64,000 bases of DNA from Candidatus Aminicenantales bacterium (GCA_049287565.1 JBAQGA010000189.1:15626-79625); one strand, 5' to 3'. Counted from the stretch's first letter, positions 2 through 41,456 are shown. The notes: generated by a model not told the origin, from the letters alone. Numbers and translations: made by a program.

Positions 2-1879
2 TGGGCGCCCTGGTACACGCTCCACAAGATCATGGCCGGACTGCTCGATATGTACATCTATTGCGGGAATAAACAGGCGCTCGATGTCCTCACCGGGATG
101 GCCGCCTGGACGAAGGCGCGGATGGACAAGCTCGATGACGAAGCGATGCAACGGATGCTCAAGGTGGAACACGGCGGGATGACCGAAGTCCTGGCCAACC
201 TTTATGCCGTTACCGCAAACCCTGACCACCTCGCTTTGGCCCGGCGTTTCGATCACAAGGCCTTCCTCGATCCGCTGGCCGCCGGCCGCGACGAGCTCAA
301 AGGTCTTCATGTCAACACCCAGGTTCCCAAGGTGCTCGGGGCCGCCAGGGAGTACGAGCTGACCGGAGAGGAATTTTATCGTGATGTCGCCACCTACTTC
401 TGGGACGAAGTGGTCAACCATCGCTCTTACGTGACCGGCGGGACGAGCAACTACGAAGCCTGGCGGACCGACCCGGATGTCCTGGCCGCTGAAGTGAGCA
501 ACGCCAGCCACGAGACCTGCGTCACCTACAACATGCTCAGGCTCACGCGCCAGCTTTTCACCTGGAGCGCCGACCCGAAGCTCGCCGACTACTACGAGCG
601 CGCTCTGTTTAACGGTATTCTCTCGACCCAGGACCCGGCGACCGGCATGGTGATGTACTACGTGCCGATGGAATCCGGGTGGTACAAGACCTTCTGCACG
701 CCCAGCGATTCCTTCTGGTGCTGCACCGGCACGGGCGTCGAGAACCACGCCAAATACGGCGACAGCATCTATTTCCACGACGAGAACGCCCTTCTTGTCA
801 ATCTTTTCATCGCCAGCGAACTCGACTGGCCGGAGAAAGGTTTGATCATCCGGCAGGAAACAAATTTCCCGGAGGAGGAGAGGACTTCGCTCCATTTCAA
901 TTGTCAGAATGATGTCAACATCGAAGTGCGGATCCGGGTGCCTGACTGGGCAACCCGGGGTGTCGAGGTGAGGATCAACAATGAGCCTCAGATGGTCTCC
1001 GCCCGGCCGGGGAGCTATCTGACCATCGCCCGCACCTGGAAGAACGGCGACCGATTGACCCTGCGAACGCCGCTGCCGCTCCATCTCTGGCGGATGCCGG
1101 ACGACCCGAATATCGCGGCTGTCGTGTGCGGGCCGATCGTCCTGGCCGGAGAGCTCCCAACGGATGAATTGGCCAAGGAGAGAGTCTACGGACCTTATCA
1201 TGCTGACGGAAGGCCCGCCCCCGCTCCCGATCTCGTTCCCCCGGCTGAGAACCTCGAGGATTGGATAAAACCGCTCGCAGGCCGCCCATTGACCTTCCGA
1301 ATCTTCGGTGCCGGACGGCCGGACGATGTAACGCTCGTTCCTTTTTATACTCTTTTTGGGAAGCGCTATGCGCTCTATTGGAATTTCTATAGCGAAAAAA
1401 ATTGGGCTGAGGTCGAGGCCAAGCGTCGGACCCGTGCCGCCGAGGAAGCGGTCCGCCAGATCGCTATCCAGAAGCGACTGGTCGACCGGGTGGTGATCGG
1501 CCAGCCCGAATCGGAAAAAGAACACAACCTCCAATCTGAGAAGAGCTCTTCCGGGGAGCTCCGGGGAGAAAAATGGCGCCAGGCCGCTGACGGAGGCTGG
1601 TTCAGCTACGATGTCCGGGTCCTCCCCGGTCAACCCATGGTGCTTCTCTGCACCTACTGGGGAAGCGATGTCGGCCGCACCTTCGACATCCTCGTCGAGG
1701 GGACGAAAATCGCCACCCAGACGGTCAACGTGAACTTTCCCGGCGATTTCTTCGATGTGGAATATAAAATTCAGCCCGAGCTTGTTCGGGGAAAAGAAAA
1801 AGTCAGCGTCCGGTTTCAGGCTCCGGACGGAGGCACAGCGGGGGGCCTCTTCGGCTTGGTGATGCTCCGGGAAAGGTGA
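2..1879 (+). CDS. Glycoside hydrolase family 127 (DUF1680, HypBA1-like beta-L-arabinofuranosidase), 5' end cut by window edge
   Basis: Reading frame is open from nt 2 (WAPWYTLHKI...) so the gene starts upstream of the window; Cys-rich FWCCTGTGVENH motif typical of GH127 Zn/Cys active-site region; 615+ aa. Confidence 0.7.
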   Translation, partial: WAPWYTLHKIMAGLLDMYIYCGNKQALDVLTGMAAWTKARMDKLDDEAMQRMLKVEHGGMTEVLANLYAVTANPDHLALARRFDHKAFLDPLAAGRDELKGLHVNTQVPKVLGAAREYELTGEEFYRDVATYFWDEVVNHRSYVTGGTSNYEAWRTDPDVLAAEVSNASHETCVTYNMLRLTRQLFTWSADPKLADYYERALFNGILSTQDPATGMVMYYVPMESGWYKTFCTPSDSFWCCTGTGVENHAKYGDSIYFHDENALLVNLFIASELDWPEKGLIIRQETNFPEEERTSLHFNCQNDVNIEVRIRVPDWATRGVEVRINNEPQMVSARPGSYLTIARTWKNGDRLTLRTPLPLHLWRMPDDPNIAAVVCGPIVLAGELPTDELAKERVYGPYHADGRPAPAPDLVPPAENLEDWIKPLAGRPLTFRIFGAGRPDDVTLVPFYTLFGKRYALYWNFYSEKNWAEVEAKRRTRAAEEAVRQIAIQKRLVDRVVIGQPESEKEHNLQSEKSSSGELRGEKWRQAADGGWFSYDVRVLPGQPMVLLCTYWGSDVGRTFDILVEGTKIATQTVNVNFPGDFFDVEYKIQPELVRGKEKVSVRFQAPDGGTAGGLFGLVMLRER

Positions 1880-1883
1880 TAAA

Positions 1884-3959
1884 ATGAGAGCCATTATTCG
1901 ATCGATCGATGAGGAGGCTGACCAGATGAGAGTGAAAACTTGGCTTTTGACCATTGGCCTCGGGATGTTTCTTGTTCTGTCGCAGATATCGTGTCAGAAG
2001 AACGGGAGAACGGATTATCCTTACAGCGCTGTTCCTCTGGCGGCGGTCGAGCTCATCGACACATTCTGGGCGCCCCGCCTCGAGACCAACCGGGCGGTGA
2101 CGGTCCCGTTCGCCCTCGAGCAATCCGAGTCGACCGGCCGGATCAAGAACTTCGAGATCGCCGGCGGCGCCGCCCAGGGAACGTTCTGCTCGAAGTATCC
2201 TTTCGACGATTCCGATGTTTACAAGATCATCGAAGGCGCCGCTTATTTGCTGATGGTCCATCCGGACCCCGATCTCGAGAAAAAGGTCGACGAGACGATC
2301 GCCAAGATCGCCGCCGCCCAGGAGAAAGACGGCTATCTTTACACGGCCCGGACGATCGACCCGGCCCACCCGCCCGTCGATTGGGTGGGAGAGGGGCGGT
2401 GGTCAAACCTGTACATGAGCCATGAGCTCTATAACCTTGGCCATCTCTACGAGGCGGCGGTCGCCTACAACAGGGCGACGGGCAAAAAAAATCTCCTCAA
2501 TGTCGCTCTCAAGAGCGCGAACCTCGTTGACAGTGTCTTCGGTCCGGGAAAAAAACACGGGACCCCGGGTCACCAGGAGATCGAGATCGGACTGGTCAAG
2601 CTCTATCGCCTGACCGGGAAGAAAAAGTACCTCAACCTGGCCAAGTTCTTCCTGGACGAGCGGGGAAATTCCTCCGACCGCAAGCTCTACGGAGAATATT
2701 CCCAGGACCACAAGCCGATCGTCGACCAGACGGAGGCGGTCGGCCACGCCGTGCGGGCGATGTATATGTACTCCGGGATGACCGATGTGGCGGCCATCAC
2801 CGGGGACGAGGTCTACGTGCGTGCCCTGGACCGAATCTGGGATGATGTCGCCTATAAGAAGATGTATGTCACCGGCGGGATCGGGGCGGCCGGAGGGATC
2901 GAGGGCTTCGGCGCCGCTTACGACTTGCCCAATGCCACCGCCTATTGCGAGACCTGCGCCTCGATCGGCTATGTCCTCTGGAACTGGCGGATGTTTTTGC
3001 TAAAGGGCGATTCCCGGTACATCGATGTCCTGGAGCGAACACTCTATAATGCCTTCCTCTCGGGAGTCGGGATGAGCGGCGACCTTTTCTTCTATCCCAA
3101 CCCCCTCGAATCTTTCGGCCAGTATCGGCGCAGCCCTTGGTTCAACTGCGCCTGCTGTCCGAGCAACATCGTCCGCTTTGTGCCGGAGATCCCCGGATTC
3201 GTCTACGCGACCCGGGACGATTCCCTGTTCGTGAACCTATTCGTCTCCAGCCGGACGAGCCTCACCCTGGGGACCCGCATGGTCAGGGTCGAACAGCAGT
3301 CTCTCTATCCCTGGGAAGGTGAGGTCAAGATCATTCTTCACCCCGAGGAACCGGCCGATTTCGGCATCCATATCCGCGTCCCCGGATGGGCGGTCGGAAG
3401 GCCTGCGCCCGGAGACCTCTACCAGTACGCTGATTTTCAAGAAGGGGCGGTGACGGTGCGGGTTAACGGAGAAACCGTCACTCCGGAGCTCGAACAAGGC
3501 TACGTCCGTCTCAGGAGGACATGGAAGGACGGCGATGCGATCGAGGTCGGGTTCCCCATGCCTGTCCGGAGGATCGTGGCCAATGCTCTTGTCCAGGACG
3601 ATGCCGGAAAGGTCGCCTTGGAGCGCGGGCCGATCGTCTACTGCGCCGAATGGCCGGATAACAGTGGTCATGTCTCCAACCTTGTCCTGCTTGATGATAC
3701 CGTCTTGTCCGCCGAATACCGTGACGACCTGCTCAAAGGGGTGATGGTTGTCAAGGGAGAGGCCACGGCCCTTTCCGCCGGCCGCCGGGCCGGGCAGGTC
3801 GACCGGAGAAGACAGGAGTTTATCGCCATCCCATACTATGCCTGGGCCCACCGCGGGGAAGGTGAGATGACCATCTGGCTGCCCCGTGAAGAGTCGCTGG
3901 CCAGGCCGCTTCCCCGGCCGAGCATTGCTTCGACGAGCAAGGTCCGCGGGCCTTCATGA
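1884..3959 (+). CDS. Glycoside hydrolase family 127 (DUF1680) lipoprotein, second paralog
   Basis: NCACCPSNIVRF GH127 motif; N-terminal signal peptide with lipobox (LSQISC) if the start is the internal ATG at 1926 (GAGGAGG RBS); alternative ATG 1884 has AAGGTGA RBS. Confidence 0.7.
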   Translation: MRAIIRSIDEEADQMRVKTWLLTIGLGMFLVLSQISCQKNGRTDYPYSAVPLAAVELIDTFWAPRLETNRAVTVPFALEQSESTGRIKNFEIAGGAAQGTFCSKYPFDDSDVYKIIEGAAYLLMVHPDPDLEKKVDETIAKIAAAQEKDGYLYTARTIDPAHPPVDWVGEGRWSNLYMSHELYNLGHLYEAAVAYNRATGKKNLLNVALKSANLVDSVFGPGKKHGTPGHQEIEIGLVKLYRLTGKKKYLNLAKFFLDERGNSSDRKLYGEYSQDHKPIVDQTEAVGHAVRAMYMYSGMTDVAAITGDEVYVRALDRIWDDVAYKKMYVTGGIGAAGGIEGFGAAYDLPNATAYCETCASIGYVLWNWRMFLLKGDSRYIDVLERTLYNAFLSGVGMSGDLFFYPNPLESFGQYRRSPWFNCACCPSNIVRFVPEIPGFVYATRDDSLFVNLFVSSRTSLTLGTRMVRVEQQSLYPWEGEVKIILHPEEPADFGIHIRVPGWAVGRPAPGDLYQYADFQEGAVTVRVNGETVTPELEQGYVRLRRTWKDGDAIEVGFPMPVRRIVANALVQDDAGKVALERGPIVYCAEWPDNSGHVSNLVLLDDTVLSAEYRDDLLKGVMVVKGEATALSAGRRAGQVDRRRQEFIAIPYYAWAHRGEGEMTIWLPREESLARPLPRPSIASTSKVRGPS

Positions 3960-12078: not shown

Positions 12079-12900
12079 CTAGCTGGTTCCTTTCTCCCGC
12101 CTCAACTTCTCCCGGGCTTCGGCGAACATCGGCTCGGCGTAGTCAGACGGCCAGGTGCGGTCCTCGAAACTCCGTTTCTCGATCAGCGTCAAGAAGCCCT
12201 TGAACTCCACGAAGTACGAACCATAGATGTGAAAGCTGTCCACGAGGTCGGCATAGCGGCCGACACGCACGGGACGGCCGGTCTTTTCCGCGATCCTTCC
12301 GGCGATGACGCGCTGCAGGTCGGTCAGGGCAAAGACATTCATGTAGGCCGCCTTGTAGGCGTCTCGCGAACGCCAGTGGGTATTCATGTTGAGGACGAGG
12401 CCATCCTTCTCGTCCGGAAGCAGCCGGCACCAGACCCGCTGCAGGCAGGGCGGGTCGTAGGTCGGGGGGTCATGCTTGGGGTTCCAGGTGATGGCCTGGG
12501 CCCGGCGGGAATGCCCCGCCTGGCTGAGTTTCTTGACGATATAGTTGACCTGGTCGATAACCGTGCCTTCGATCTCGTAGGCGAACAGGCGCTTGTGGTA
12601 AGTGTATGTCCACTTGCCTTCTTCCGGCGCGATCCAGTGGTCATGGACGCCGTCGACGACCTCCTGCCGATAGATCTCGAGGTCCTCCAGGCCGCCCGGG
12701 AAGGCGCGGTGGATGCGCGGCTCCAGGAAGGGGTCTTCCACCACCCACATCATCGTGCAGTCTTTGCTCGGCGGGTCGCCCGGCTTGTCGTATTCGGTCT
12801 CGATGGCCACCCCTTTCTCCCAGCAGGCCAGGACGGCCTTCTCCCAGGCTTCGGGCAAGGTCTTTCCGTGGACACAGAGCGTTGGAATCAGCCCTTGCAT
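12079..12900 (-). CDS. Thymidylate synthase (ThyA) superfamily protein, divergent
   Basis: SRRAQAITWNP...DPPC...HWRSRDAYKAAYMNVFALTDLQRVIAGRI aligns by eye with the ThyA SRRIIVSAWN...APCH...[20 protein letters not shown] core including the catalytic Cys; N-terminal half diverged. Confidence 0.55.
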   Translation of the reverse strand: MQGLIPTLCVHGKTLPEAWEKAVLACWEKGVAIETEYDKPGDPPSKDCTMMWVVEDPFLEPRIHRAFPGGLEDLEIYRQEVVDGVHDHWIAPEEGKWTYTYHKRLFAYEIEGTVIDQVNYIVKKLSQAGHSRRAQAITWNPKHDPPTYDPPCLQRVWCRLLPDEKDGLVLNMNTHWRSRDAYKAAYMNVFALTDLQRVIAGRIAEKTGRPVRVGRYADLVDSFHIYGSYFVEFKGFLTLIEKRSFEDRTWPSDYAEPMFAEAREKLRREKGTS

Positions 12901-12907
12901 CGGAACC

Positions 12908-13252
12908 TCACTTCTTCAGGAAAGCAGACACGAGGACCACGACTCCCACGGCGATCAGGATGAGCGGCCACCACTCCATGAACCCGATGAGATAAGAACC
13001 GCCGATGATCGCCAGGATGAGGCCGGCGGTGAGCCGTCCGCTGATCCCGCGCCGGCCTTCAGCCGAGAAAGCCCGGAGGAGCGCTTCGAGCAGGAATATC
13101 CCGCCCAATCCCACCAAAAAATAAGCCCACCAGTCCGCCCAGGAGATGCGGTCCATTTCGGTCAGGAGAAAGAGGACGCCGAGAAGGATTAAGATAAGGC
13201 CACCCGCTATTTTGGGATGATAATCCTGTTTTGTTTTGATATTTTCGTTCAT
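12908..13252 (-). CDS. Small membrane protein (LiaI/LiaF-TM-like), hypothetical
   Basis: 114 aa, 3-4 hydrophobic helices, no recognisable catalytic motif. Confidence 0.4.
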   Translation of the reverse strand: MNENIKTKQDYHPKIAGGLILILLGVLFLLTEMDRISWADWWAYFLVGLGGIFLLEALLRAFSAEGRRGISGRLTAGLILAIIGGSYLIGFMEWWPLILIAVGVVVLVSAFLKK

Positions 13253-13344
13253 CCCGTCTCTCCCGTTTTGAGTTGAGATTATCCTCCTATATCATAGCCG
13301 CCGCACCCGGTCAATGAGGCGGGAAAAAGGAGGGGGAGAAAAGA

Positions 13345-13392
13345 AAGGGGAGGGGGAGGGACATAGCCCCGGCCCCCTCCGGTCTTTTTGAT
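13345..13392 (-). terminator. Putative intrinsic terminator downstream of gdhA inside a 40-nt polypurine/polypyrimidine tract
   Basis: GGAGGGGG ... CCCCCTCC inverted repeat (8-bp G:C stem, ~16-nt loop) followed on the minus strand by CCTTTCTTTTCTCC; on the plus strand the same hairpin is followed by GGTCTTTTT. Confidence 0.4.
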
Positions 13393-13408: not shown

Positions 13409-14707
13409 TCAGGCTGCCCGCCCCAGGGCGGTCAGCGATTCCGCCACCCGGCCGACGCCCAGGATATAGGCGGCCTCCCTCATGGTGACGTTGTGTTTTT
13501 CCATCACGGCCACGACCTCCCAGAAAGCCTTTTTCATCTTTTTTTCGGTCTTTTCCCGGATCTCTTCCTCGGAAAAGAAGTAGCGCTGCAGGTCCTGCAC
13601 CCACTCCAAGTAGGAAACGGTGACCCCGCCAGCGTTGGCCAGGATATCCGGGGCGACGAGGACCTTCCTCTCTTTCAGGATCTCGTCCGCCTCCAGGGTC
13701 GTCGGGCCGTTGGCGCCCTCGAGGACGATCTTGGCCTTGACCGTATCGGCATTGTCCCGGTGGATCTGCCCTTCCACGGCGGCCGGGATGAGGATGTCAC
13801 AGGCGAAGGCGATGACGCCGTCGTTGTCGATCGGCTCGGTGCCGGGGAAATTGACGACGCTCCCCGTCTGGAGAACTTGCTTCTCCAGGGCGAACGGGTC
13901 GATCCCTTGGTCGCAGCGGATGCCGCCGAACATGTCTGTGACGGCGACGATCCGGCAGCCGGCCCGGTGGACCAGCTTGGCGATCGATGAGCCGACGTTG
14001 CCGAACCCGAGGATGGCCACCGTCTTTCCGGCAAGCGGGGTATCCAGGTGCCGGCAGGCTTCCTCCAGGACGAAAAACAGTCCGGTTCCGGTGGCCATCG
14101 CCCGGCCCAGAGAACCCCAGAGATTGACGGGCTTGCCGGTGACAACGGCGGGCTCCAGGTATCCTTGGCCCTGGCTGTAGGCGTCGGCAATCCAGGCCAT
14201 TGTCTGGGCGTTGGTGAACATGTCCGGCGCCGGGATATCCAAGTAAGGGCCGATGAAGTCCCTGATGGCGAAGATGTATTCTTTGGTCATCTTCTTGAGC
14301 TCGTTTTCCGACATCTTCAGCGGGTCGCAAATAATGGCCCCTTTGCCTCCTCCGAAGGGAAGATCGAGGACCGCGCATTTCCAGGTCATCCAGGAGGCCA
14401 AAGCCTTGCATTCGCTCAGCGACGCCTTCGGGCTGTAGCGGATGCCGCCCTTGGCCGGTCCGCGGACCCTGGAATGCTGGACCCGGAAGCCGGTGAAGGT
14501 CTCGGCCACCCCGCTGTCGAGGGTGATGGCCAGATGGACCGTCAGTTCCCGCTCGGGATGCTTGAGCCTCTGATAGACCCAGGGATCGAGGTCGAGGAAA
14601 TTGGCGGCTTGCTCGAACTGGAGAGTCGCCTCCAGGAACGGGTCATATTCCTTTTCTCTTAATTCCGGAAGAGGGCTGATGTACCTGATCTTGGCTTCGT
14701 CTTTCAT
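13409..14707 (-). CDS. gdhA: Glutamate dehydrogenase (Glu/Leu/Phe/Val DH family)
   Basis: 432 aa; GGIRYSPKASLSECKALASWMTWKCAVLDLPFGGGKGAI N-terminal catalytic motif and GFGNVG Rossmann motif. Confidence 0.9.
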   Translation of the reverse strand: MKDEAKIRYISPLPELREKEYDPFLEATLQFEQAANFLDLDPWVYQRLKHPERELTVHLAITLDSGVAETFTGFRVQHSRVRGPAKGGIRYSPKASLSECKALASWMTWKCAVLDLPFGGGKGAIICDPLKMSENELKKMTKEYIFAIRDFIGPYLDIPAPDMFTNAQTMAWIADAYSQGQGYLEPAVVTGKPVNLWGSLGRAMATGTGLFFVLEEACRHLDTPLAGKTVAILGFGNVGSSIAKLVHRAGCRIVAVTDMFGGIRCDQGIDPFALEKQVLQTGSVVNFPGTEPIDNDGVIAFACDILIPAAVEGQIHRDNADTVKAKIVLEGANGPTTLEADEILKERKVLVAPDILANAGGVTVSYLEWVQDLQRYFFSEEEIREKTEKKMKKAFWEVVAVMEKHNVTMREAAYILGVGRVAESLTALGRAA

Positions 14708-14720
14708 CGTCGTTCCCCCC

Positions 14721-14981
14721 TCAGTCGATTTCCTTGACCAGCAGCTTCAACAGCCGGTCATAACCCGATTTCTGGAATTGCAGGATGGGCACTTTTTTGC
14801 CATGATGATAGAGGTATTTGCCCTCGAGCCGGACTCTTTTTTTCGTCTTCGGATTTCGGGCGGCGATCTTGTGGACATCGGGCCAGGGGATGATTTCCGC
14901 CAGCTGGTCTTCGGCCGCCTCGGGAAGGGATTCTTCCCGGATGTCCTTGACGGCGCTGCCGGATTTTGAATGATTGCTCAT
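14721..14981 (-). CDS. Hypothetical small protein (86 aa), first gene of the predicted sigma-54 transcript
   Basis: ATG 14981 preceded by AAGGAGG RBS; the ORF-track N-terminus (15011) would lie inside the sigma-54 promoter so the internal start is preferred; no family recognised; 13-nt gap to gdhA. Confidence 0.45.
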   Translation of the reverse strand: MSNHSKSGSAVKDIREESLPEAAEDQLAEIIPWPDVHKIAARNPKTKKRVRLEGKYLYHHGKKVPILQFQKSGYDRLLKLLVKEID

Positions 14982-15014
14982 ATCGACCTCCTTATTAGAG
15001 CAGGCCAACATTAA

Positions 15015-15030
15015 AGCAATTCCCGTGCCA
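15015..15030 (-). promoter_or_regulatory. Predicted sigma-54 (RpoN) promoter TGGCACGGGAATTGCT (-24 GG / -12 GC)
   Basis: Minus-strand sequence TGGCAC-N5-TTGC matches the sigma-54 consensus TGGCACG-N4-TTGCW with correct spacing; about 35 nt upstream of the AAGGAGG-ATG of the small ORF and immediately downstream of a sigma-54-dependent regulator gene. Confidence 0.6.
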
Positions 15031-15133
15031 GAAGCTAAATTATTGATATGAAATAATATATGCTAAAAATAGATGAAGGATATTGCGTTTTGCGCTATTG
15101 CAATATGCAGTGATACTCCCCTGAGTCCGGACT

Positions 15134-16507
15134 TTATTGCTTTTCCCAGGCCTTGATTTTCCGGAAGAGGGAGGAAGGATGAATCCCCAGCACCTTGGCA
15201 GCCTGCGATCTGTTCTGGTTAACAGCTGCCAAAACTTTCTTGATATAGGCTTTCTCTAGTTTCTCTAAAGTCGGGAGCGAGTCGACAGGAACGATATCCT
15301 CGAACCCGGGGGAGTCGGGTATCTCCCGATATTCTCTGATTTCCGAGGGGAGATAGTTATACCGGACCTCCTCATCGGTATAGAGGGAGAGGACCCTTTC
15401 GATGATATTGCGGAGCTCCCGGGCATTGCCCGGCCAGGGATAAGCGAGGACGGCCTTGGCGGCTTCTTGGGAGATCCCTTTGTAGGCTCGTTTCAGCTCC
15501 TGGTTGAGCTCGCGGATGAACTGAAGGGCCAGGGGGACGATATCCTCCTGGCGCTCCCGCAGCGGTGGGATGACGATGGGCACGACATTCAGCCTGTAGA
15601 ACAGATCGGAGCGGAATTTGCCGCTCTCCGTGGCCTTGGCCAGGTCTATGTTCGTGGCGGCGATGACGCGGATGTTGACCTTGATCGGCTGGGTCCCTCC
15701 GAGGCGGTTGAACGTCCCTTCCTCCAACACCCGGAGCAGCTTGGCCTGGAGGTTGAACGACATATCCGCGATCTCGTCGAAGAAGATCGTCCCCTCGTCG
15801 CCCCTTTCCAGGAGCCCGATCTTCCTTTTGCGGGCATCGGTGAAAGCTCCGGCCTCGTAGCCGAACAGTTCACTCTCCAAGAGGTTCTCCGGAATGGCGG
15901 CGCAGTTGATCTCGACGATCGGCTTTTCCGCCCGCGGGCTGTGATAATGGACGGCCTTGGCCAGGAGCTCTTTTCCCGTCCCGCTCTCTCCCTGGAGGAG
16001 AACGGTCGTCCTATCGGCGGTGGCGACCCGTTTGGCCAGGCTGATGACCTCTTTCATTTTCCTGCTCTCGGCGATGATCCTTCCGAAGTAGTAGCGGCCC
16101 TTCTCCGATTCGAGATGCTCCAGGACCCGGATGCGGAGAGCCAGTGTTTCCAAGGCGCGATGGATAGTGTGCTTCAGGTCGCTAATCCGGAACGGCTTCA
16201 GCAGATAGTCATAGGCGCCGAGCTTCATCGATTCGACCGCCTTTTCCAGGATCTCATAGGCGCTCATCATGATGACGATCGTCTCCCGGTCGATGTCCTT
16301 GACGCGGCGCAAGACCTCGGTTCCCGAGATACCGGGGAGCATCAGGTCGAGAAGGATGAGCTGGGGCTTGTAGCGGACGACCATCTCCAGGGCCGCTTCC
16401 CCGGAATCGGCGACCAGGACCTCGTAATCCTCTTTCTCCAGCGCCTTCTTGAGGTTGTTCAGGGTCAGGATCTCGTCGTCGACGATCAGGATGGAGAACG
16501 TGCTCAA
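15134..16507 (-). CDS. Sigma-54-dependent response regulator (REC + AAA+ sigma-54 activator + Fis-type HTH, NtrC family)
   Basis: ILIVDDE...LDLMLPG receiver; GESGTGKE Walker A; ESELFGYEAGAFTDA sigma-54 interaction loop; C-terminal HTH. Confidence 0.9.
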   Translation of the reverse strand: MSTFSILIVDDEILTLNNLKKALEKEDYEVLVADSGEAALEMVVRYKPQLILLDLMLPGISGTEVLRRVKDIDRETIVIMMSAYEILEKAVESMKLGAYDYLLKPFRISDLKHTIHRALETLALRIRVLEHLESEKGRYYFGRIIAESRKMKEVISLAKRVATADRTTVLLQGESGTGKELLAKAVHYHSPRAEKPIVEINCAAIPENLLESELFGYEAGAFTDARKRKIGLLERGDEGTIFFDEIADMSFNLQAKLLRVLEEGTFNRLGGTQPIKVNIRVIAATNIDLAKATESGKFRSDLFYRLNVVPIVIPPLRERQEDIVPLALQFIRELNQELKRAYKGISQEAAKAVLAYPWPGNARELRNIIERVLSLYTDEEVRYNYLPSEIREYREIPDSPGFEDIVPVDSLPTLEKLEKAYIKKVLAAVNQNRSQAAKVLGIHPSSLFRKIKAWEKQ

Positions 16508-18651
16508 GAGATCACCTCCTCATCCTTGAGAGACACCCGGCCTTTCTGACGGATGGGCAGGAGGATGGAGAACGTCGCGCCTTTTCCCGCCTCGCTCCGG
16601 ACGGAGATCTCTCCGTCATGGTTCTTGATATACCTCAGGCTGATGCTCAGGCCGAGCCCGGTGCCCTGGCTCTTCTTGGTGGTGAAGAAGGGATCGAAGA
16701 TCTTCTTCAAATTCTCCGGGGGGATGCCGATGCCGGTGTCGCTGATCTGGATCTGGATCCGATCCTGAAACTTGACCTTGGAGGTCTCCGCATTGAGTTC
16801 GCCGCCCCCGGACATGGACTGAGCGGCGTTGATGAATATATTGGTCAGGACCTGGCGGATCTGGTTGAGGTCGGCGGTGACCTGGGGAAGACCTGCGGGA
16901 AGGACCTTCTCGATCCGGACGTTGCGGAAGATCGGCTGATGGCCGAGGAAGGACAGCGTGTCTTCGACGAGCTGGTTGATATTGATCTTGGTGAACTGCG
17001 GGGGTGTCGGCCGGGCGAAATTGAGAAGACCCCGGATCGTCTCGGAGATCCGATAGACATTCTCCAACACCACCTCGATCTCCTGCTTTTTGGCGGCTCC
17101 GGAGGTCTCATCCCGGAGGATTTCAAGATAGGAGGATATGCCCAGGAGCGGGTTGTTGATCTCGTGTGCCGCCCCGAGTGCCAGTTGGCTGAGGGCGGAA
17201 AGTTTTTCATAATCGGCCAGCTGGTGATGGAGCTTTTCGCGTTCAGTGACGTCCTCTATCAGGATGCTCACGCCGACTATCTGGCCGCGGGCATCCTCGA
17301 CGGGGAAGAACGAAAGATTGAAGAACTCCTCGCCGCGCCGGCGGTCGATCCGCTTCTTATCGATCCGATTGGGCCGGCCGCTGAGGATCGTCTTGTCGAA
17401 CGCCAGTTCGATGTCCTTATCGTTGAGCCAAGGCAGGGTCTGGAAGATGTTCTCGCCTTTCTTGAGTTCCGGCAGGTTGAAGAGCTGGCGGATTTCCTTG
17501 TTGAAATGAGTAATCCGACCGGAGGAGTCTAGACCGACGACGCCCAGGAAGATGCTGTCCACAAGGTTGGTGATATACTCCTCCGAGAGGCGGAGCTCCT
17601 CGGCCAGGAGCTCGCTCTCCTTCGCCCTTCTCTGGAGTTCGATGTTCATTACGTCCACTTCTTTTTTTTTCCCCCGGGCCTCTTCCAGGGCCCGGCGGAG
17701 GTCGGTGGTCAGTCGACGGAGGAGAGATGTCGTCCGCCTCGAGTTGAGGGTGGAGATAAAGACGAGAAGGACGAAGAACGGCAGGAAAAGGTAAAGGATG
17801 ATCCGGTTGACCTGCCGGAGGGGCAGGAGGGCTTCTTTAAGGTCTATTTCCGAGACAAGGTAGTCGGTGGAGCCCGGAATCTTAGCATAGGCGCAGAGCA
17901 CGCGCTGGCCGCGATAGTCGGTGTGCGTCTTAACCCCTTTCAGGCCCTCATGGGGATTCCCCTCTTTCTCCAGAAATCCCTTGTCGATGAGCGGGCGTCC
18001 GCCCAGCTTTGTTGGAGAAAGAAATATTCCCCGGTCGTCCGTCAGGAAGAGTTCGCTCGTTTCTCCGATCCTCAGGTCGAAAAGCAGGCCGTAGTAGCTC
18101 GGGAGGTCCAATCCGGCGGCAACAACTCCTACGATCTTGTCGTTGCGGTTGATCAGAGGGACGGAGAGGATCATGACGCTCGAGCCGACGATTTCCGAAA
18201 AGAAGATCCCCGAATTGAAGAACCTCCCTGCCCGGGAGGCCCGGAAGTATTCCCGGTCGGCGATCGTCCCGGATAGGTCGGTGTTGAGAGAGAGGATGAT
18301 GCGGCCTTCCAGGTTGGTGACGAGGATGAAGTCATACCATTTCATAGCGGCGAGGCGGGAGGCCAGAACCGGAGTCAGGCGCGGGACGTCCTCGGGGCCG
18401 TCGATGTCGAAATGGGAGAACGACTTCAGGTCGGTCTCGCGGTCCTGGAGAAAAACGGTGATGGTCTTGATGTTCTCGGCGACCGTCGCGGCCAAGCGGT
18501 CGTAGATCTGTCTCTTGATCAGGGACGAAACTTCGTAGTTGACGGCCAGGTAGAGAAGGAGGAACGGGCTGACGAAGAGGAGGATGGTCAGCAGGGTGTT
18601 CCTCGAGGTCAGCTTCCGGTAGTTCGTTTCTTCGTGGGCTTGAACCTTCAT
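16504..18651 (-). CDS. Sensor histidine kinase (periplasmic Cache-like domain, PAS, HisKA, HATPase_c)
   Basis: N-terminal TM plus a large periplasmic domain; HEINNPL H-box; GTGLGLSIS G2 box; 4-nt overlap with the downstream regulator. Confidence 0.85.
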   Translation of the reverse strand: MKVQAHEETNYRKLTSRNTLLTILLFVSPFLLLYLAVNYEVSSLIKRQIYDRLAATVAENIKTITVFLQDRETDLKSFSHFDIDGPEDVPRLTPVLASRLAAMKWYDFILVTNLEGRIILSLNTDLSGTIADREYFRASRAGRFFNSGIFFSEIVGSSVMILSVPLINRNDKIVGVVAAGLDLPSYYGLLFDLRIGETSELFLTDDRGIFLSPTKLGGRPLIDKGFLEKEGNPHEGLKGVKTHTDYRGQRVLCAYAKIPGSTDYLVSEIDLKEALLPLRQVNRIILYLFLPFFVLLVFISTLNSRRTTSLLRRLTTDLRRALEEARGKKKEVDVMNIELQRRAKESELLAEELRLSEEYITNLVDSIFLGVVGLDSSGRITHFNKEIRQLFNLPELKKGENIFQTLPWLNDKDIELAFDKTILSGRPNRIDKKRIDRRRGEEFFNLSFFPVEDARGQIVGVSILIEDVTEREKLHHQLADYEKLSALSQLALGAAHEINNPLLGISSYLEILRDETSGAAKKQEIEVVLENVYRISETIRGLLNFARPTPPQFTKININQLVEDTLSFLGHQPIFRNVRIEKVLPAGLPQVTADLNQIRQVLTNIFINAAQSMSGGGELNAETSKVKFQDRIQIQISDTGIGIPPENLKKIFDPFFTTKKSQGTGLGLSISLRYIKNHDGEISVRSEAGKGATFSILLPIRQKGRVSLKDEEVIS

Positions 18652-18775: not shown

Positions 18776-19654
18776 ATGACCGTCAGTGCCGTCGTCAGGT
18801 CCGTGAGGCCGGCCCAGTGGACCAAGAACCTCTTCGTCTTCGCGGCTCTGATCTTTGCCCAGAGGTTTTTCTCCGTCCCCCTGCTGCTCAAGACGGTCGG
18901 AGCCTTTTTCATATTTTGCCTGGTCTCCGGCGCCTTCTATATCTTCAATGACCTCCGCGACCGCGAGGAGGACCGGGCCCATCCCAAGAAATCGCAGCGG
19001 CCGATCGCCAAGGGGGAGATCCGTCCCAGCGAGGCGCTCGTCCTCTTTTTCCTGCTGGCCGCGATCGGCCTGGCGGCCGCTTTTTGCCTCGAGCGGAATT
19101 TTTTTCTGGCCGTCGGCATCTATTTCCTGCTGCAGATGGCTTATTCTCTCCGGCTGAAGCAAGTCGTCATCCTCGACATCTTCGTAATCGCCGCGGGATT
19201 CGTCATCCGGGTGGTGGCCGGCGGACTGGTCATCGCGGTGCCTATCTCCTCGTGGCTCCTGATTTGCACGACGCTTCTGGCCCTTTTGCTGTCGATGGGG
19301 AAGAGACGCCACGAGCTCACCATTCTCGAAGACCGGGCGGCCGAGCACCGCCCTATCCTCAAGGAATACAGCGCCTACCTGCTCGACCAGATGATCGCCG
19401 TGGTCACGGCGTCTACCCTGATCGCCTACTGCCTCTACACGATCTCAGAGGAGACCGTGCAGAAGTTCGGCACGTCGAATCTTATCTGGACGGCCCCCTT
19501 CGTCCTCTACGGCATTTTCCGGTATCTCTACCTGGTCCATCTCAAAGGCAAGGGCGGCAGCCCGGAAGAGATCATCATCCAGGACAAGCCGATGCTCTTG
19601 AACATCATGCTCTGGATCGGAGCGGTTATTCTCGTTCTCTATTTGAGAGAGTGA
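18776..19654 (+). CDS. UbiA-family prenyltransferase, decaprenyl-phosphate phosphoribosyltransferase-like
   Basis: WTKNLFVFAALIFAQ...FNDLRDREEDRAHPKK...PIA Asp-rich UbiA motifs, 8-9 TM, 292 aa. Confidence 0.7.
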   Translation: MTVSAVVRSVRPAQWTKNLFVFAALIFAQRFFSVPLLLKTVGAFFIFCLVSGAFYIFNDLRDREEDRAHPKKSQRPIAKGEIRPSEALVLFFLLAAIGLAAAFCLERNFFLAVGIYFLLQMAYSLRLKQVVILDIFVIAAGFVIRVVAGGLVIAVPISSWLLICTTLLALLLSMGKRRHELTILEDRAAEHRPILKEYSAYLLDQMIAVVTASTLIAYCLYTISEETVQKFGTSNLIWTAPFVLYGIFRYLYLVHLKGKGGSPEEIIIQDKPMLLNIMLWIGAVILVLYLRE

Positions 19655-20380: not shown

Positions 20381-21751
20381 TCAGGACACGAAAGTGATGT
20401 TCAGTGTCTTGATCTTCTCCCGGAGCTCTTTTTCGTCGAGCTTGAGATCGGAAGCAGACTGGGGGATGTCCCAGCCGTTTCTCATCAGGACGCCGTGGAT
20501 GTATCGTCTTTCGAAATGTTCCTTGGCCTTATCCAATGTCCGGTCATCCCGCCCCTCAAAAAAATCGGAGAAGTACTCGAGCTCGCGGGTTTCGACAAGT
20601 AGGGTGAGATGAGAGCCGTCGATGACGTCCTCGGGGACCATGATGACGAACCGTTCGATGACGTTCATCAACTCGCTGACGTTTCCGGGCCAAATATAGC
20701 GCAGGAAGGCCCCGAGGGCCTCCGGACTCATGGTTTTGGGCCTCTTGCCGTATTCCGCGGCGAAGTGCTTGAGGAAGTGGTCGATCAGGAGAGGAATGTC
20801 CTCGGACCTCTCCCTCAAAGGGGGCAGGGTCAGGGGTATAACGTTGAGCTTGAAGAAAAGGTCTTCCCGGAAGCGGCCTTTGGCGATGAGGTCGCGGAGG
20901 CTCCTGGAGGTCGCGGCCATAATGCGGCCCTCGAAGGAAAGGGGCGCCGCGGCCCCGAGCGGTTCGAAAGTCCGCTCGCTGATAGCCCGGAAAAGGCCGG
21001 CCTGGGTTTTCAAGCTCAGGTCGCCGACCTCATCGAGGAACAGTGTGCCTTCGTGGGCCAGCAATAGTTTTCCTTTCTTGTCCCGGGCGGCCTGGGGGAA
21101 CGCTCCCTTGAGATAACCGAACAGCTCCATCTCCATCAACTCATCGGGGACGGCCGAGCAGTTGACCTCAACGAACCGTTTTTCCCGGCGCTGGCTCTTC
21201 TGATGGATGAGGCGGGCGACCAGCTCCTTTCCAGTTCCATTCTCTCCGTAAATCAGAACTGTGCCGCCGGCGACCGCAGTCATTTCGATCTCTTTCCTGA
21301 GCTTCTGGATGGAAGGGCTTTCGCCGATGAGGTAATAGCGTCCGTGCTGGCGCTCGCGGAGCAGGAGATTCTCTTCCTCGAGCTTCTTCTGCCGGAGGGT
21401 GTTGCGGACGGTCAGGATGACCTTCTCGAGCGAGAGCGGTTTTTCCAGGAAATCATGAGCGCCGAGCTTGGTCGCGGTGACGGCCGTCTCGATCGTGCCG
21501 TGCCCGGAAATCATGACCACCGGCGGGCTCTCCTCCATAGCCTTGATCTTCTTAAGGACCTCGATGCCGCTCATCTTGGGAAGCCAGATGTCGAGAAGCA
21601 CCAGGTCGACGTTCTGGCTCTTCAGCATCTCCAGACCCAGCTCTCCCGATTCCACGGTCTTGGCCAGAAAGCCCTCGTCTTCCAGGATCCCTTTGAGCGA
21701 GGAACAGATGCTGGCTTCGTCGTCGATGATGAGGATATTCTCTTTGGTCAT
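20381..21751 (-). CDS. ntrX: Sigma-54-dependent response regulator, NtrX-like
   Basis: REC domain, GENGTGKE Walker A, ELFGY...GAF sigma-54 loop, C-terminal HTH; immediately downstream of an NtrY-like kinase with 4-nt overlap. Confidence 0.7.
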   Translation of the reverse strand: MTKENILIIDDEASICSSLKGILEDEGFLAKTVESGELGLEMLKSQNVDLVLLDIWLPKMSGIEVLKKIKAMEESPPVVMISGHGTIETAVTATKLGAHDFLEKPLSLEKVILTVRNTLRQKKLEEENLLLRERQHGRYYLIGESPSIQKLRKEIEMTAVAGGTVLIYGENGTGKELVARLIHQKSQRREKRFVEVNCSAVPDELMEMELFGYLKGAFPQAARDKKGKLLLAHEGTLFLDEVGDLSLKTQAGLFRAISERTFEPLGAAAPLSFEGRIMAATSRSLRDLIAKGRFREDLFFKLNVIPLTLPPLRERSEDIPLLIDHFLKHFAAEYGKRPKTMSPEALGAFLRYIWPGNVSELMNVIERFVIMVPEDVIDGSHLTLLVETRELEYFSDFFEGRDDRTLDKAKEHFERRYIHGVLMRNGWDIPQSASDLKLDEKELREKIKTLNITFVS

Positions 21752-23928
21752 GCGGGCAACTGAATGGTGAATTTGGCGCCGGTCGGCTGGATATTCTCCA
21801 CCCGGATCGATCCGTGGTGTTCACGGATGATCTGATTGACGATGGCCAACCCCAGGCCGGTGCCTTTTTTCTTGGTGGAAAAATAGGGCAGAAAAAGTTT
21901 GGTCTTGTCCTCGACCGAAATGCCCGGCCCCGTATCCGAGATCTCGATCGAGACCTGCTGTTGTTTTTTGTCGAAAACGGCCCGGACCCGGATCTTCCCT
22001 TTCTTGTTCATGGCCTCGATGGCGTTGTCGAAGATGTTGATCATGACCCTTTTGATCTGCTCCGGGTCGAGCTGGAGTGCGGCCGGGAGGTCAGGCGCCA
22101 CGTTGGCCTCGAACTCGACCTGGGCGAAGATGCCGCGGAAGAGTCCCACCGTCTGTTCGATAAGCGTACGCAGGTCGCCCGGCCTAAGCTCGACTTTGGG
22201 CATGCGGGCGAAGTTGGAGAATTCGTCGACCATGGACTTGATCGTCCGGGCTTCCTGGATAATCGTCCTCGCTCCCTCCTCGATCACCGTCGGGGAGTTC
22301 GGGTCCTGTCTTTTCAGCATCTTGATGATCCGTTCCGCCGAGAGCTGGATCGGCGTCAGCGGGTTCTTGATTTCGTGAGCGACTCGCTGGGCGACCTCTT
22401 TCCAAGTGGCGATCTTCTGGGCCTTGATGAGCTGGGTGAGGTTGTCAAAGACGACGATCATTCCCGAGAAATCGCCGTTGGCCTGGGGCAAAGGAGAGAG
22501 GGCCAAGGCCAGGGTTGTCGTCTGTCCATTGGAGACGATGTTGATCTCCTTGTCCGAAAGGCGGTACCTGTTCTTGATTCCCCAGGCGATGTTCTTGACG
22601 ATCTCCCCGTATTTTTCTTCGTTCAGGACCTCTTTGAATCCCTTGCCGATGGGATTCCGGTCTTCGATGGTCAGCATTTCCCGGGCCGAGGGATTGATGG
22701 TCGTGATCCTCCCCTCGGAATCGAGCGTGATGACACCGGTGGTGATGTTCTGAAGGACGGTCTCGATATACTGCTTCCGGTTCTCGAGCTCGGCGGTTTT
22801 CTGGGCGATGTGGAGCTGGCTGTCCCGGAGGTCGGAGATCATCTGGTTGAAGGAGTCGATGAGCGTCCCCAGTTCATCGGTGGCCGCGTCCTCGACCCGA
22901 ACGCTCAGGTTGCCCCGGGATACCTCCTTAGTCGCCTGGGCAAGCTTCTCGATCGGGACGGTGATTCCCCTGGCAAGATGGAGTCCGCTCCAGGAAGCAG
23001 CGAAGATGATGAGCAGGGTGATGAACATCAGGATGAAGACGTAAAAGGTCTTAACGGTGATCTTCTGGGGAGCGAGTAGACGGTATCTTTCCACGTAGGC
23101 GTTGATCGTGGTGAGCTTTTGCGTGAAGCTCTGGGGAAAGAACTTCCCCGCGGTCACCAGGACGTGACCGACGCCGGCCAGGTCGAAAGCGACACCCCGC
23201 CGGACCATCTCCCCGGTTCCCATCGGTTCGATGCTGCGGAAGAGGTCGCCCTGGCGGGCTCTCTCGACGAGATTCGGCTGGACGGATTTGTAATCTTGGA
23301 GAGGAAGTCCGGGGTTGAGATAGGTGAACAGCTCTTCCTCATCCAGGTAGATGCCGATCTCGTCGAGCTTGTATTCGTTGAGCTTCTCGCGGATGAAATC
23401 CCTCAGGAGCAGCCTGTTCTGCACCTGAACGAGCCTGCGGCTGCGGATGTCCCGGCTCAACTCGAGGGCGTAATGGTGGGCCGTCTCCTCGGCGTCTGCG
23501 TAGATTCCGTCGGCGACGCTCTGGGTGTCCGCGATCACGCGGTCGAAAGGCGTCTTGAACCAGAGCTCGATGTTCCGGCTGATGAGGTCGCTGGCGAAGA
23601 AAAAGAGCAGGAAAGTGGGGATGATGCTCAAGGCGATAAAAAACAGGACGAGTTTGGTCTTGAAGTGGGAGCCGACGATATTCCGCTTTCTTTCGAGGTA
23701 AAGCTTGACCAGGTTCCGGCCCAGGACGAAGAGGAGGACGAGGAAGAGGATCAGGACGATGACCTGCATCATGGACAGGAGAACGTTGGTTGCCGAGGTG
23801 GGGGAGAACTCTTGGGAGGCGCGGATGAAGTACTCGAGGGCGAAGAAGACGATGACGAGCAGGATGACGAAGGCCGCGATGAAACGCGGGCCTTTCTTTT
23901 TGGGCGTCTCCATCGGCCTAGCTCTCAT
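21748..23928 (-). CDS. ntrY: Sensor histidine kinase, NtrY-like (multi-TM N-terminus, HAMP, PAS, HisKA, HATPase_c)
   Basis: 726 aa; 4 N-terminal TM; HEIKNPLTPIQLSAERI H-box; GTGLGLAIV G2 box. Confidence 0.65.
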   Translation of the reverse strand: MRARPMETPKKKGPRFIAAFVILLVIVFFALEYFIRASQEFSPTSATNVLLSMMQVIVLILFLVLLFVLGRNLVKLYLERKRNIVGSHFKTKLVLFFIALSIIPTFLLFFFASDLISRNIELWFKTPFDRVIADTQSVADGIYADAEETAHHYALELSRDIRSRRLVQVQNRLLLRDFIREKLNEYKLDEIGIYLDEEELFTYLNPGLPLQDYKSVQPNLVERARQGDLFRSIEPMGTGEMVRRGVAFDLAGVGHVLVTAGKFFPQSFTQKLTTINAYVERYRLLAPQKITVKTFYVFILMFITLLIIFAASWSGLHLARGITVPIEKLAQATKEVSRGNLSVRVEDAATDELGTLIDSFNQMISDLRDSQLHIAQKTAELENRKQYIETVLQNITTGVITLDSEGRITTINPSAREMLTIEDRNPIGKGFKEVLNEEKYGEIVKNIAWGIKNRYRLSDKEINIVSNGQTTTLALALSPLPQANGDFSGMIVVFDNLTQLIKAQKIATWKEVAQRVAHEIKNPLTPIQLSAERIIKMLKRQDPNSPTVIEEGARTIIQEARTIKSMVDEFSNFARMPKVELRPGDLRTLIEQTVGLFRGIFAQVEFEANVAPDLPAALQLDPEQIKRVMINIFDNAIEAMNKKGKIRVRAVFDKKQQQVSIEISDTGPGISVEDKTKLFLPYFSTKKKGTGLGLAIVNQIIREHHGSIRVENIQPTGAKFTIQLPA

Positions 23929-40300: not shown

Positions 40301-40534
40301 GTGAAAGCAGGCGCAACGCTGGATTGCTTCGGGCTCCTTTGTCCGATGCCCATCATCCAAACGGCCAAGAAGATCAAAGAATTGAGAATCGGCGAGGTCC
40401 TCGAGATCGTTTCCACCGATGAGGGTATCAAGGTCGACATGCCGGCCTGGTGCAAAATGACAGGTCAACAATTCCTCGGGCAGGAGCAGGACGGTGATGT
40501 CTACCGCGTCTATATCCGCAAGCTCAAGGATTAA
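40301..40534 (+). CDS. TusA-like sulfurtransferase (SirA/YedF/YeeD family)
   Basis: 77 aa from GTG 40301 (GGAGAGAGA RBS); LDCFGLLCPMPIIQTAKKI with CPxP motif. Confidence 0.6.
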   Translation: MKAGATLDCFGLLCPMPIIQTAKKIKELRIGEVLEIVSTDEGIKVDMPAWCKMTGQQFLGQEQDGDVYRVYIRKLKD

Positions 40535-40550
40535 GGGACGGCGAAACATC

Positions 40551-41456
40551 GTGACCAAGGACGAAATCATCGATCGGATCCGTAAGCTCCGGAAAGAGCG
40601 AAAGGCGGTCATCCTGGCCCACAACTACCAGATCGGCGAGGTCCAGGACATCGCCGACTACACCGGCGACTCCCTGGGATTGAGCCAGGAAGCTGCCAGG
40701 AGCGAGGCCGAAGTGATCGTCTTCTGCGGCGTCCATTTCATGGCTGAGACGGCGGCCATCCTCTCTCCCCAAAAAGCCGTCCTTCTGCCTGATGCGGGGG
40801 CCGGATGCCCGATGGCCGACATGATCACCGCCCAGGAACTCCGCGACTGGAAGGCCGGATACCCGGGCCGGCCGGTCGTCTGTTATGTCAACACCACCGC
40901 CGAGGTCAAGGCCGAATCCGACATCTGCTGCACCTCGTCCAATGCCGTCAAGGTGGTGAATTCCATCCCCGAGGAGGAGATCCTTTTCGTCCCCGACAAG
41001 AATCTGGCCGCCTATGCCGCCCGCCAGACCCGAAAGAAGATCATCGCCTGGGACGGCTATTGCTATGTCCATAACCAGATCCTGACGGCGGATGTCCAGG
41101 CCAGGAAAAAGGAACATCCGAAGGCCGAGATCTGGGTCCATCCCGAGTGCCGGCCCGAAGTGATCGACCTGGCCGATAAGGTTATCTCCACGGGTTTCAT
41201 GGTGAAAGCGGCGCGGGAGACTACGGCTGCAGAAGTCCTCGTCGGCACCGAGGTCGGGATCCTTCATCGGTTGCGGAAAGAGAACCCGCGAACGGCGTTC
41301 TTCCCCGTCAAGGACTTGGCTTTTTGTTCGAACATGAAAAAGATCACTCTCCTTAAGGTCCGGCAGGCCTTGGAGGAGATGAGATACCGGATCGACGTCC
41401 CCGCGGCGATCAGCCGGAAAGCGAGAGGGGCCATCGAGAAAATGATCACCCTATAG
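40551..41456 (+). CDS. nadA: Quinolinate synthase
   Basis: 301 aa from GTG 40551; AVILAHNYQ...VHFMAETA...HPEC NadA motifs; the ORF-track N-terminal extension overlaps tusA and is rejected. Confidence 0.9.
   Translation: MTKDEIIDRIRKLRKERKAVILAHNYQIGEVQDIADYTGDSLGLSQEAARSEAEVIVFCGVHFMAETAAILSPQKAVLLPDAGAGCPMADMITAQELRDWKAGYPGRPVVCYVNTTAEVKAESDICCTSSNAVKVVNSIPEEEILFVPDKNLAAYAARQTRKKIIAWDGYCYVHNQILTADVQARKKEHPKAEIWVHPECRPEVIDLADKVISTGFMVKAARETTAAEVLVGTEVGILHRLRKENPRTAFFPVKDLAFCSNMKKITLLKVRQALEEMRYRIDVPAAISRKARGAIEKMITL

Follow-up and report, generated by a model that had tools for sequence, protein, structure and literature searches.

We analysed a stretch of 64,000 nt of DNA from a Candidatus Aminicenantales bacterium (GCA_049287565.1 JBAQGA010000189.1:15626-79625), called the window throughout. 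Positions 13409-18651, all on the minus strand, hold a two-component pair, a sigma-54 (-24/-12) promoter, an open reading frame (ORF) for a small protein of 86 amino acids (aa), and the gene of a glutamate dehydrogenase (GDH). Comparison with related loci strongly supports a functional, enhancer-dependent sigma-54 promoter, which puts a transcript of the small ORF and GDH under the control of the adjacent two-component pair. Judged from the sequences, this regulatory module is conserved across the uncultured Aminicenantes lineage and is self-contained. An earlier note on the window had read the region as an enhancer-dependent sigma-54 transcript of a small ORF and GDH, and this core is borne out by the gene order, the promoter, a dyad enhancer, the tight spacing and a hairpin. 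In one clade the small ORF is fused to GDH, and we propose the 86-aa protein as a candidate partner of the enzyme. The features of the module, each with its basis, are as follows.

16504..18651, minus strand: sensor histidine kinase, 715 aa (Pfam, hydropathy, orthologues)
15134..16507, minus strand: NtrC-family response regulator / enhancer-binding protein, 457 aa (Pfam, sequence, orthologues)
15080..15112, minus strand: upstream activator sequence (enhancer) CTGCATATTGCAATAGCGCAAAACGCAATAT (anchored comparison, matrix scan)
15035..15070, minus strand: conserved A/T-rich block, IHF-like (conserved columns -32 to -5)
15015..15030, minus strand: sigma-54 (-24/-12) promoter TGGCACGGGAATTGCT (consensus, matrix, conservation)
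15003..15005, minus strand: predicted transcription start (standard sigma-54 geometry)
14987..14993, minus strand: Shine-Dalgarno sequence AAGGAGG of the small ORF (sequence; GGAGG precedes the ATG in related loci)
14721..14981, minus strand: 86-aa small protein, uncharacterised lineage-restricted family (ORF, ATG at 14981)
13409..14707, minus strand: GDH, 432 aa (Pfam, PDB matches)
13337..13380, minus strand: terminator-like hairpin and T-rich run (fold and sequence)

The genes are closely packed. The TTG start of the regulator overlaps the stop codon of the kinase (16504-16507), and the ATG of GDH at 14707 lies 13 nt past the end of the small ORF at 14721. The promoter motif and its coordinates, the AAGGAGG-ATG, the 86-aa ORF at 14981-14721 and the 13-nt gap were all found as previously described.

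For comparison, 104 homologues of the small protein, nearly constant in length, were aligned (alignment A1), and one genome per species was scanned with this alignment, which gave 42 related loci. Source names, where given among the 104 homologues, and the genome loci point to Aminicenantes; the labels of the 42 loci are nearly all Aminicenantes or Saccharicenans. Upstream DNA was present for 41 of these loci and downstream DNA likewise for 41. Promoter, enhancer and terminator were tallied over 41 sequences, namely 40 related loci and the window, and L012 was inspected separately. The order kinase, regulator, small ORF, GDH was held in 40 of the 41 loci with upstream DNA, and GDH lay directly 3' of the small ORF in all 41 with downstream DNA. 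The regulator gene was directly 5' of the promoter region in 40/41 loci, its stop codon falling 100-250 nt before the promoter. In L010, from an Aminicenantales metagenome-assembled genome, everything from the enhancer through the promoter and small ORF to GDH is kept, with no kinase or regulator gene within 1.27 kb upstream; an apparently unrelated 277-aa ORF sits where these genes would be (L010 1-1270). Because enhancer, promoter, small ORF and GDH are kept together there without the two-component genes, they appear to form a regulated unit. Candidatus Fischerbacteria RBG_13_37_8 (L043 6001-11047), from another candidate phylum, has the module too; its small ORF has 64 aa and lacks the IIPWPD motif, and its kinase is apparently frameshifted.

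The promoter TGGCACGGGAATTGCT at 15030-15015 (-) matches TGGCAC-N5-TTGCW perfectly, as no other site in the 64 kb does. Its GG (15029-15028) and GC (15017-15016) are 10 bp apart and fit the consensus YTGGCACGrNNNTTGCW. When one mismatch to TGGCAC-N5-TTGCW was allowed, the 64 kb gave 3 matches against 0.83 expected. Two sites with one mismatch, 41049-41064 (+) inside nadA (40494-41456) and 19253-19268 (+) inside the divergently transcribed gene of a UbiA-family prenyltransferase (18776-19654), are probably non-functional. A position weight matrix built from 40 other species, a scan that the earlier note had suggested, gave 26.5 bits at the promoter and 11.4 at the runner-up site in the window. 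In 41/41 loci the stretch from the regulator stop to the small-ORF ATG contained a single TGG-N9-TGC, 37-64 nt before the ATG. The background frequency of this pattern (0.286 per kb in 960 kb of related loci) predicts 0.36 occurrences in those zones, compared with the 41 observed. Over the 41 sequences the -24 element was TGGCAC (25), TGGCAT (12), TGGCCC (3) or TGGTCC (1), and the -12 element was TTGCA (23), TTGCT (13) or another sequence (5); the promoter of L012 is TGGCAT-N5-TTGCA. GG and GC were invariant, while the 5-nt spacer between the two elements drifts freely. Fixed -24/-12 elements with varying spacer bases are what a working sigma-54 promoter should show. The near-consensus promoter with correct spacing that had been reported for this site is thus unique in the window in its perfect form and conserved in every locus with upstream DNA.

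The spacer between the promoter and the regulator gene (15031-15133) measures 103 nt, and not the 122 nt given earlier; its A/T-richness was correctly noted (34% G+C in 15000-15099 and 59% in the whole window). The same spacer had been named as the place to look for upstream activator sequences, and an inverted-repeat dyad conserved in the 41 sequences was found in it at 15112-15080, straight after the regulator stop codon. In an alignment of the 41 sequences anchored on the promoter, this enhancer is a dyad of about 30 bp made of four (T)TGCA(A) or TTGCAA-like hexamers, at -79, -72, -64 and -57 from the T of TGGCAC. The offset of the hexamer block was constant to within 1 nt in all species, and the 27 bp of the enhancer in a Saccharicenans locus (L041), TTGCAATTTGCAATATTGCAAATTGCAA, form a perfect palindrome. 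With a matrix derived from the enhancers of 40 other species, the site scored 33.6 bits on the minus strand and 32.0 on the plus strand, and these high scores on both strands confirm its dyad symmetry; no unrelated site in the 64 kb scored above 4.6. Since the matrix finds no second site, the regulator would have a single target within the window. The regulator is predicted to bind this dyad, which is centred about 92 bp before the predicted start.

The A/T-rich block between enhancer and promoter is also conserved, with the consensus TTTATTTTCAATAAGTTA. In the window it contains TATCAATAATTTA at 15048-15036 (-), an exact match to the IHF core WATCAANNNNTTR. In 17 other sequences an IHF core in the opposite orientation is found at offset -30, 12 nt further upstream. 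We presume that the block is a DNA-bending element, either an IHF/HU site or a region of intrinsic curvature.

From the GC of the promoter at 15017-15016, transcription is predicted to start 12-13 nt downstream, at about 15005-15003, which would leave a 5' untranslated region of about 22-24 nt. A 96-aa ORF from an ATG at 15011 was rejected, because this ATG is upstream of the predicted start; orthologues begin at the later ATG. In all loci a gap of 2-30 nt separates the small ORF from GDH, and the two would be co-transcribed. Folding revealed a terminator-like hairpin past GDH, which a simple terminator scan had overlooked: a G+C-rich stem GGAGGGGG…CCCCCTCC, then CCTTTCTTTTCT. A similar hairpin and T-run was found at most 120 nt past the GDH stop in 27/41 sequences, and this terminator-like hairpin probably marks the end of the predicted two-gene transcript. 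Scans for Rfam families and tRNAs gave no hit anywhere in the window, so a known RNA element does not appear to be involved.

The regulator has the Pfam domains Response_reg, Sigma54_activat (PF00158, E 8.5e-69) and HTH_8, that is, a REC domain, an AAA+ domain and a Fis-type helix-turn-helix (HTH). A regular-expression search for GAFTGA in the six-frame translation of the window found none; read directly, the sigma-54 contact loop of the regulator is GAFTDA. The same loop was present in 39/39 orthologues in which it was readable, and a 40th orthologue gave no match. GAFTDA is a tolerated, functional variant of the loop according to a Desulfovibrio regulome study (PMC4641369). In NCBIfam the regulator scored best with AtoC (417 bits; cut-off 714), and it was also below the cut-offs of two NtrC models: PRK10923 (322 bits; cut-off 620) and TIGR01818 (393 bits; cut-off 558.6), which aligns only residues 6-391 of the regulator (profile 1-382 of 463) and ends before the DNA-binding C-terminus.

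By Pfam and hydropathy, the kinase has a first transmembrane segment (TM1) at ~17-41, a periplasmic dCache_1 domain at ~42-280, a second (TM2) at ~280-304, and then PAS, HisKA and HATPase_c domains; the large periplasmic Cache-like domain mentioned in the earlier note is therefore present between two transmembrane segments. Orthologues with 53-93% identity lie directly upstream of the regulator in related loci. The best NCBIfam model was AtoS (305 bits; cut-off 646), and the NR(II)/NtrB model NF008293 gave 95 bits (cut-off 240). We rejected NtrB/NtrC orthology, as the kinase is a transmembrane dCache protein and both scores are below the cut-offs. The pair had been called NtrB/NtrC-like; it is closest to AtoS/AtoC, which themselves score below their cut-offs. 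In one clade the kinase is split into two overlapping ORFs (L044 6001-8183 and L045 1314-2902), a 275-aa protein with the transmembrane and dCache parts and a 452-aa PAS-kinase starting 4 nt before the stop of the first ORF. The split form occurs in two independent assemblies, and the 275-aa protein on 7 contigs.

An amino acid had been suggested as a possible external ligand of the kinase. The published dCache_1AA motif for amino-acid binding is Y121-x4-R126-x-W128-Y129 … Y144 … D173 in PctA numbering (PMC8915833). The corresponding residues of the kinase, mapped by hand from the motif spacing with no structural alignment, are G128, R133, Y135, F136, F151 and D182, so that Y121 is replaced by G, W128 by Y and Y144 by F, and comparison with the motif did not support the suggestion. 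Among 34 orthologues only R133, Y135 and F136 of these were at least 90% conserved, and D182 was not conserved. The conserved Arg would be compatible with a carboxylate ligand. Compared by sequence with solved structures, the sensor domain gave marginal matches only (KinD, E 0.014; heliorhodopsin on a transmembrane segment) and no clue to the ligand. A homologue search with the sensor domain returned only 10 proteins and led to the Fischerbacteria and split-kinase loci, likewise with no ligand clue.

A second two-component pair lies beside recO at 20381-23928 (-), 5 kb from the module, and is kept upstream of recO in related loci. Its kinase is NtrY-like (NtrY_N, HAMP and PAS). Its regulator has a sigma-54-type AAA+ domain with the loop GAFPQA and no HTH_8 hit, and because of this loop and the missing HTH_8 hit it is probably an NtrX-like protein and not a sigma-54 activator. 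A Thr-to-Pro change in the loop is inactivating in NifA (PMC4641369).

The GDH matched ELFV_dehydrog_N (PF02812, E 2.1e-51) and ELFV_dehydrog (PF00208, E 6.7e-74). Its matches in the PDB included 1b3b from T. maritima (E 1.4e-126), 1euz (E 3.5e-125) and RocG, 3k92 (E 8.5e-111). The nearest enzymes are those of Thermotoga, Thermococcus and Pyrococcus (E 1e-126 to 1e-120), followed by RocG and GudB of B. subtilis (~1e-111), and the E. coli-type NADP enzymes are far away (E ~1e-50). The NCBIfam model GdhA_Arch gave 488 bits, below its cut-off of 750. The enzyme is thus of the hexameric 50-kDa class, with a conserved N-terminal extension of about 18 residues. The label gdhA used earlier is imprecise, since the enzyme falls in the Thermotoga/Thermococcus/RocG-GudB branch and not in that of the E. 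coli-type NADP GdhA.

The 86-aa protein has no Pfam or NCBIfam match, as the description of an unknown ORF implied, though its link to GDH had been overlooked. Its isoelectric point (pI) is 9.6. The N-terminal half is acidic and disordered and carries an IIPWPD motif; the C-terminal half is basic (pI 10.1) and ends in a beta-hairpin and helix, …GKKIPILQFQKSGYDKLLKLLVKEI. An AlphaFold2 model shows a disordered N-terminus and a beta-hairpin and helix at 56-85, with a pLDDT of ~80 there and 65 overall. Orthologues of the small ORF encode 77-90 aa. A profile search of 1.84 billion representative proteins returned 18 hits only, all of 41-90 aa, and detected no homologue outside the lineage.

In L031 7001-8566 (contig CAZYMU010000007.1) the small ORF runs into GDH without a stop and forms an ORF of 521 aa. 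This fusion is represented by 13 distinct sequences of 517-521 aa from one clade (P0133-P0145), which differ by substitutions at the junction and on either side of it, in the small-protein part and in GDH, and it was found on at least 36 contigs from four sources (NCBI, JGI, Logan, ENA). With 13 variants on so many contigs from four sources, the fusion is real and not an assembly error. At its junction the enzyme's conserved N-terminal extension is preserved in full, with the invariant Tyr9 and Pro12 (alignment A2). A homologue search with the junction found short GDH fragments only and no further fusions. By the gene-fusion argument, the fact that one clade encodes both proteins as a single polypeptide suggests that the 86-aa protein acts together with GDH, and we infer that it is a partner of the enzyme, either a detachable N-terminal module or a small subunit. 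A fuller proposal, to which we give about an even chance, is that the 86-aa protein is an unrecognised subunit or detachable N-terminal domain of the hexameric GDH, confined to Aminicenantes (with a shorter form in Ca. Fischerbacteria). It would dock by the N-terminal extension of GDH and tune activity, assembly or partner binding, and a dedicated operon, controlled through sigma-54 and a kinase with a Cache domain, would supply it in fixed proportion to the enzyme.

In the literature Aminicenantes figure as fermenters of peptides and amino acids that make use of GDH (PMC4897734), and the window also encodes a serine dehydratase, amino-acid permeases and a 2-oxoacid:ferredoxin oxidoreductase. 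For both reasons catabolic induction is favoured, and we lean slightly towards a GDH induced for glutamate breakdown in a peptide- and amino-acid-fermenting bacterium. The transcript had been predicted to be nitrogen-responsive; nothing in the analysis shows a nitrogen response. As a separate observation, two adjacent amino-acid permease genes, at 55299-57389 (+) and 52938-55292 (+), have unusual C-terminal additions, a PTS EIIA-2 domain with TrkA_C in one and a universal stress protein domain in the other.

Several observations weigh against parts of this interpretation. The genes of rpoN and of IHF/HU were not found by a regular-expression search of the six-frame translation of the window, in which the RpoN-box motif was included, and a search of a literature library found no paper linking Aminicenantes with sigma-54. 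At offset -18 the IHF core is perfect in only 5/41 sequences and within one mismatch in 14/41. In Fischerbacteria (L043), the sole outgroup locus, the promoter keeps TGGCAT and has a degenerate -12 element, TCTCA for TTGCW. Of the dCache_1AA residues only the carboxylate-binding Arg is kept in the kinase. For the 86-aa protein the structural model is of medium confidence only, and no structural relatives were found. The A/T-rich block also resembles a sigma-70 -10 region (TTAGCA-16-AATAAT at 15066-15039 (-)), and the simple terminator scan found no terminator between the regulator gene and the small ORF, so that read-through from the kinase-regulator operon could contribute. If the -24/-12 match were a coincidence, transcription of the small ORF and GDH would come from the sigma-70-like pair in the spacer or from read-through of the regulator gene, and the failure to find rpoN in the 64 kb would be accounted for. 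We consider this very improbable: the motif recurs in 41/41 species, against 0.36 expected, with GG and GC invariant beside a drifting spacer, the -35-like region of the TTAGCA-16-AATAAT pair is not conserved across related loci, and the motif is accompanied by a dedicated enhancer-binding protein and a phased enhancer.

Another possibility is that the sigma-54 promoter is real and answers to an enhancer-binding protein from some other locus, such as a true nitrogen regulator, while the adjacent pair controls something else. L010, which has kept everything from the enhancer to GDH with no kinase or regulator gene nearby, would fit such an arrangement, as would the second regulator with a sigma-54-type AAA+ domain 5 kb away, and the binding of the adjacent regulator to the enhancer is predicted from sequence only. 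However, the adjacent regulator gene ends 100-250 nt before the promoter in nearly every locus with the enhancer right after its stop codon, neither the enhancer matrix nor the promoter matrix finds a second target in the 64 kb, and the neighbouring regulator has the GAFPQA loop and no HTH_8 hit; an activator from elsewhere is therefore improbable. Somewhat less improbable, though still unlikely, is that the 86-aa protein, instead of being a partner of GDH, feeds back on the circuit, acting as an anti-activator (as in PspA-PspF and HrpV-HrpS) or as a small DNA-binding protein at the enhancer. It is encoded by the first gene of a sigma-54 operon that adjoins the activator gene, as pspA is, its basic C-terminal half with the predicted beta-hairpin and helix would suit such a role, and all four genes co-occur, so that co-occurrence alone cannot separate the two ideas. 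The in-frame fusion to the N-terminus of GDH in 13 variants argues against it, as do L010, where the small ORF stays with GDH though the two-component genes are absent, and the gap to GDH, which is always short.

The elements, linkage and geometry described above fit together in one circuit, from kinase to regulator, enhancer, sigma-54 promoter, and a small protein with its partner GDH, which we regard as likely as a whole. In this circuit the periplasmic double-Cache domain of the membrane kinase would sense a signal outside the cytoplasm, and its cytoplasmic PAS domain may give a second input. The kinase would phosphorylate the AtoC-like NtrC-family regulator with its GAFTDA loop, which would assemble on the 30-bp dyad centred about 92 bp upstream of the start. 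With the DNA presumably bent at the A/T-rich IHF-like block, the AAA+ ATPase of the regulator would open the closed complex of sigma-54 RNA polymerase at TGGCAC-N5-TTGCT. The predicted output is a two-gene mRNA with a short leader, encoding the 86-aa protein and a RocG/Thermotoga-type GDH and ending at an intrinsic terminator, and the 86-aa protein may then physically work with GDH as a detachable N-terminal module or small subunit.

Other genes of the window were also recorded. Past the GDH terminator, at 12079-13252 (-), are genes of a 114-aa LiaF/LiaI-like membrane protein and of a 273-aa protein that matches thymidylate synthase only weakly (E 9e-10); outside the closest relatives neither is conserved. 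The window has a ThyX-type (Thy1) gene as well, matched in two stretches, at 51313-52833. A sugar-utilisation cluster at 32-3959 (+), unrelated to the module, consists of two GH127 beta-L-arabinofuranosidase-like genes in tandem and then an FGGY sugar kinase and an isomerase.

No member of Aminicenantes, a group plentiful in anoxic sediments, aquifers and digesters, is in culture, so the regulation of the group is known from sequence only. The module offers a complete and testable signal-to-gene circuit, with sensor, activator, enhancer, bending element, promoter, operon and terminator as its predicted parts, and each cis element is supported by conservation across ~40 species. It would extend sigma-54 control of GDH, known in Bacillota and Geobacter, to another phylum with a different type of activator. 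GDH stands at the junction of carbon and nitrogen metabolism and few protein partners of it are known; the natural fusion ties a small protein to this enzyme.

In B. subtilis, rocG is transcribed from a -24/-12 promoter by SigL and RocR, which links amino-acid availability to glutamate catabolism (PMC10404663; PMC3162934). Sigma-54 control of COG0334 has been reported as typical of Bacillota (PMC12316311), and sigma-54 control of GDH is also found in Geobacter (PMC2725144). The module shares with rocG/RocR the sigma-54-to-GDH logic and a GDH of the same structural branch. However, RocR is a one-component PAS-type activator (PAS, AAA+ and HTH) without a receiver, and its enhancer is downstream of rocG, whereas here the activator is a response regulator, paired with a membrane dCache kinase, the enhancer lies about 92 bp upstream, an extra small protein is encoded, and the phylum is different. 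We do not count the module as a RocR/rocG system, since its activator comes with a cognate kinase as well as a receiver domain, and the enhancer lies upstream.

E. coli AtoS and AtoC gave the best-scoring models for the two proteins, and that pair likewise adjoins the single catabolic operon that it activates (atoDAEB, with a sigma-54 promoter). AtoC binds a dyad of two inverted TGCA/TTGC-rich sites, for example GCTATGCAGAAATTTGCACA (PMC3118216). The scores (305 against 646 and 417 against 714) indicate that the proteins are not orthologues. The kinase has dCache_1 as its periplasmic sensor, the enhancer is a 30-bp array of four TTGCAA hexamers at 7-8 bp spacing and not a 40-bp palindrome, and the target is GDH and not acetoacetate catabolism. 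With NtrB/NtrC the module shares the domain order REC, AAA+, Fis-type HTH of the regulator and the predicted mechanism of activation. NtrC sites contain TGCA, as do the enhancer half-sites described here. Unlike the cytoplasmic NtrB, the kinase is transmembrane with a periplasmic Cache domain, and the gene annotation of the window shows no PII or glnA genes near the module.

Other GDHs of the same 50-kDa hexameric class (3aoe, 3k92) depend on a second polypeptide for activity or signalling: the T. thermophilus enzyme forms a GdhA-GdhB hetero-complex, and B. subtilis RocG binds GltC. In comparison with GdhB and GltC, the candidate partner here is an unrelated 86-aa protein, encoded just upstream of GDH and fused to it in one clade. 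The circuit is of a textbook kind, solid but not surprising, and the GDH-linked small protein is its new part.

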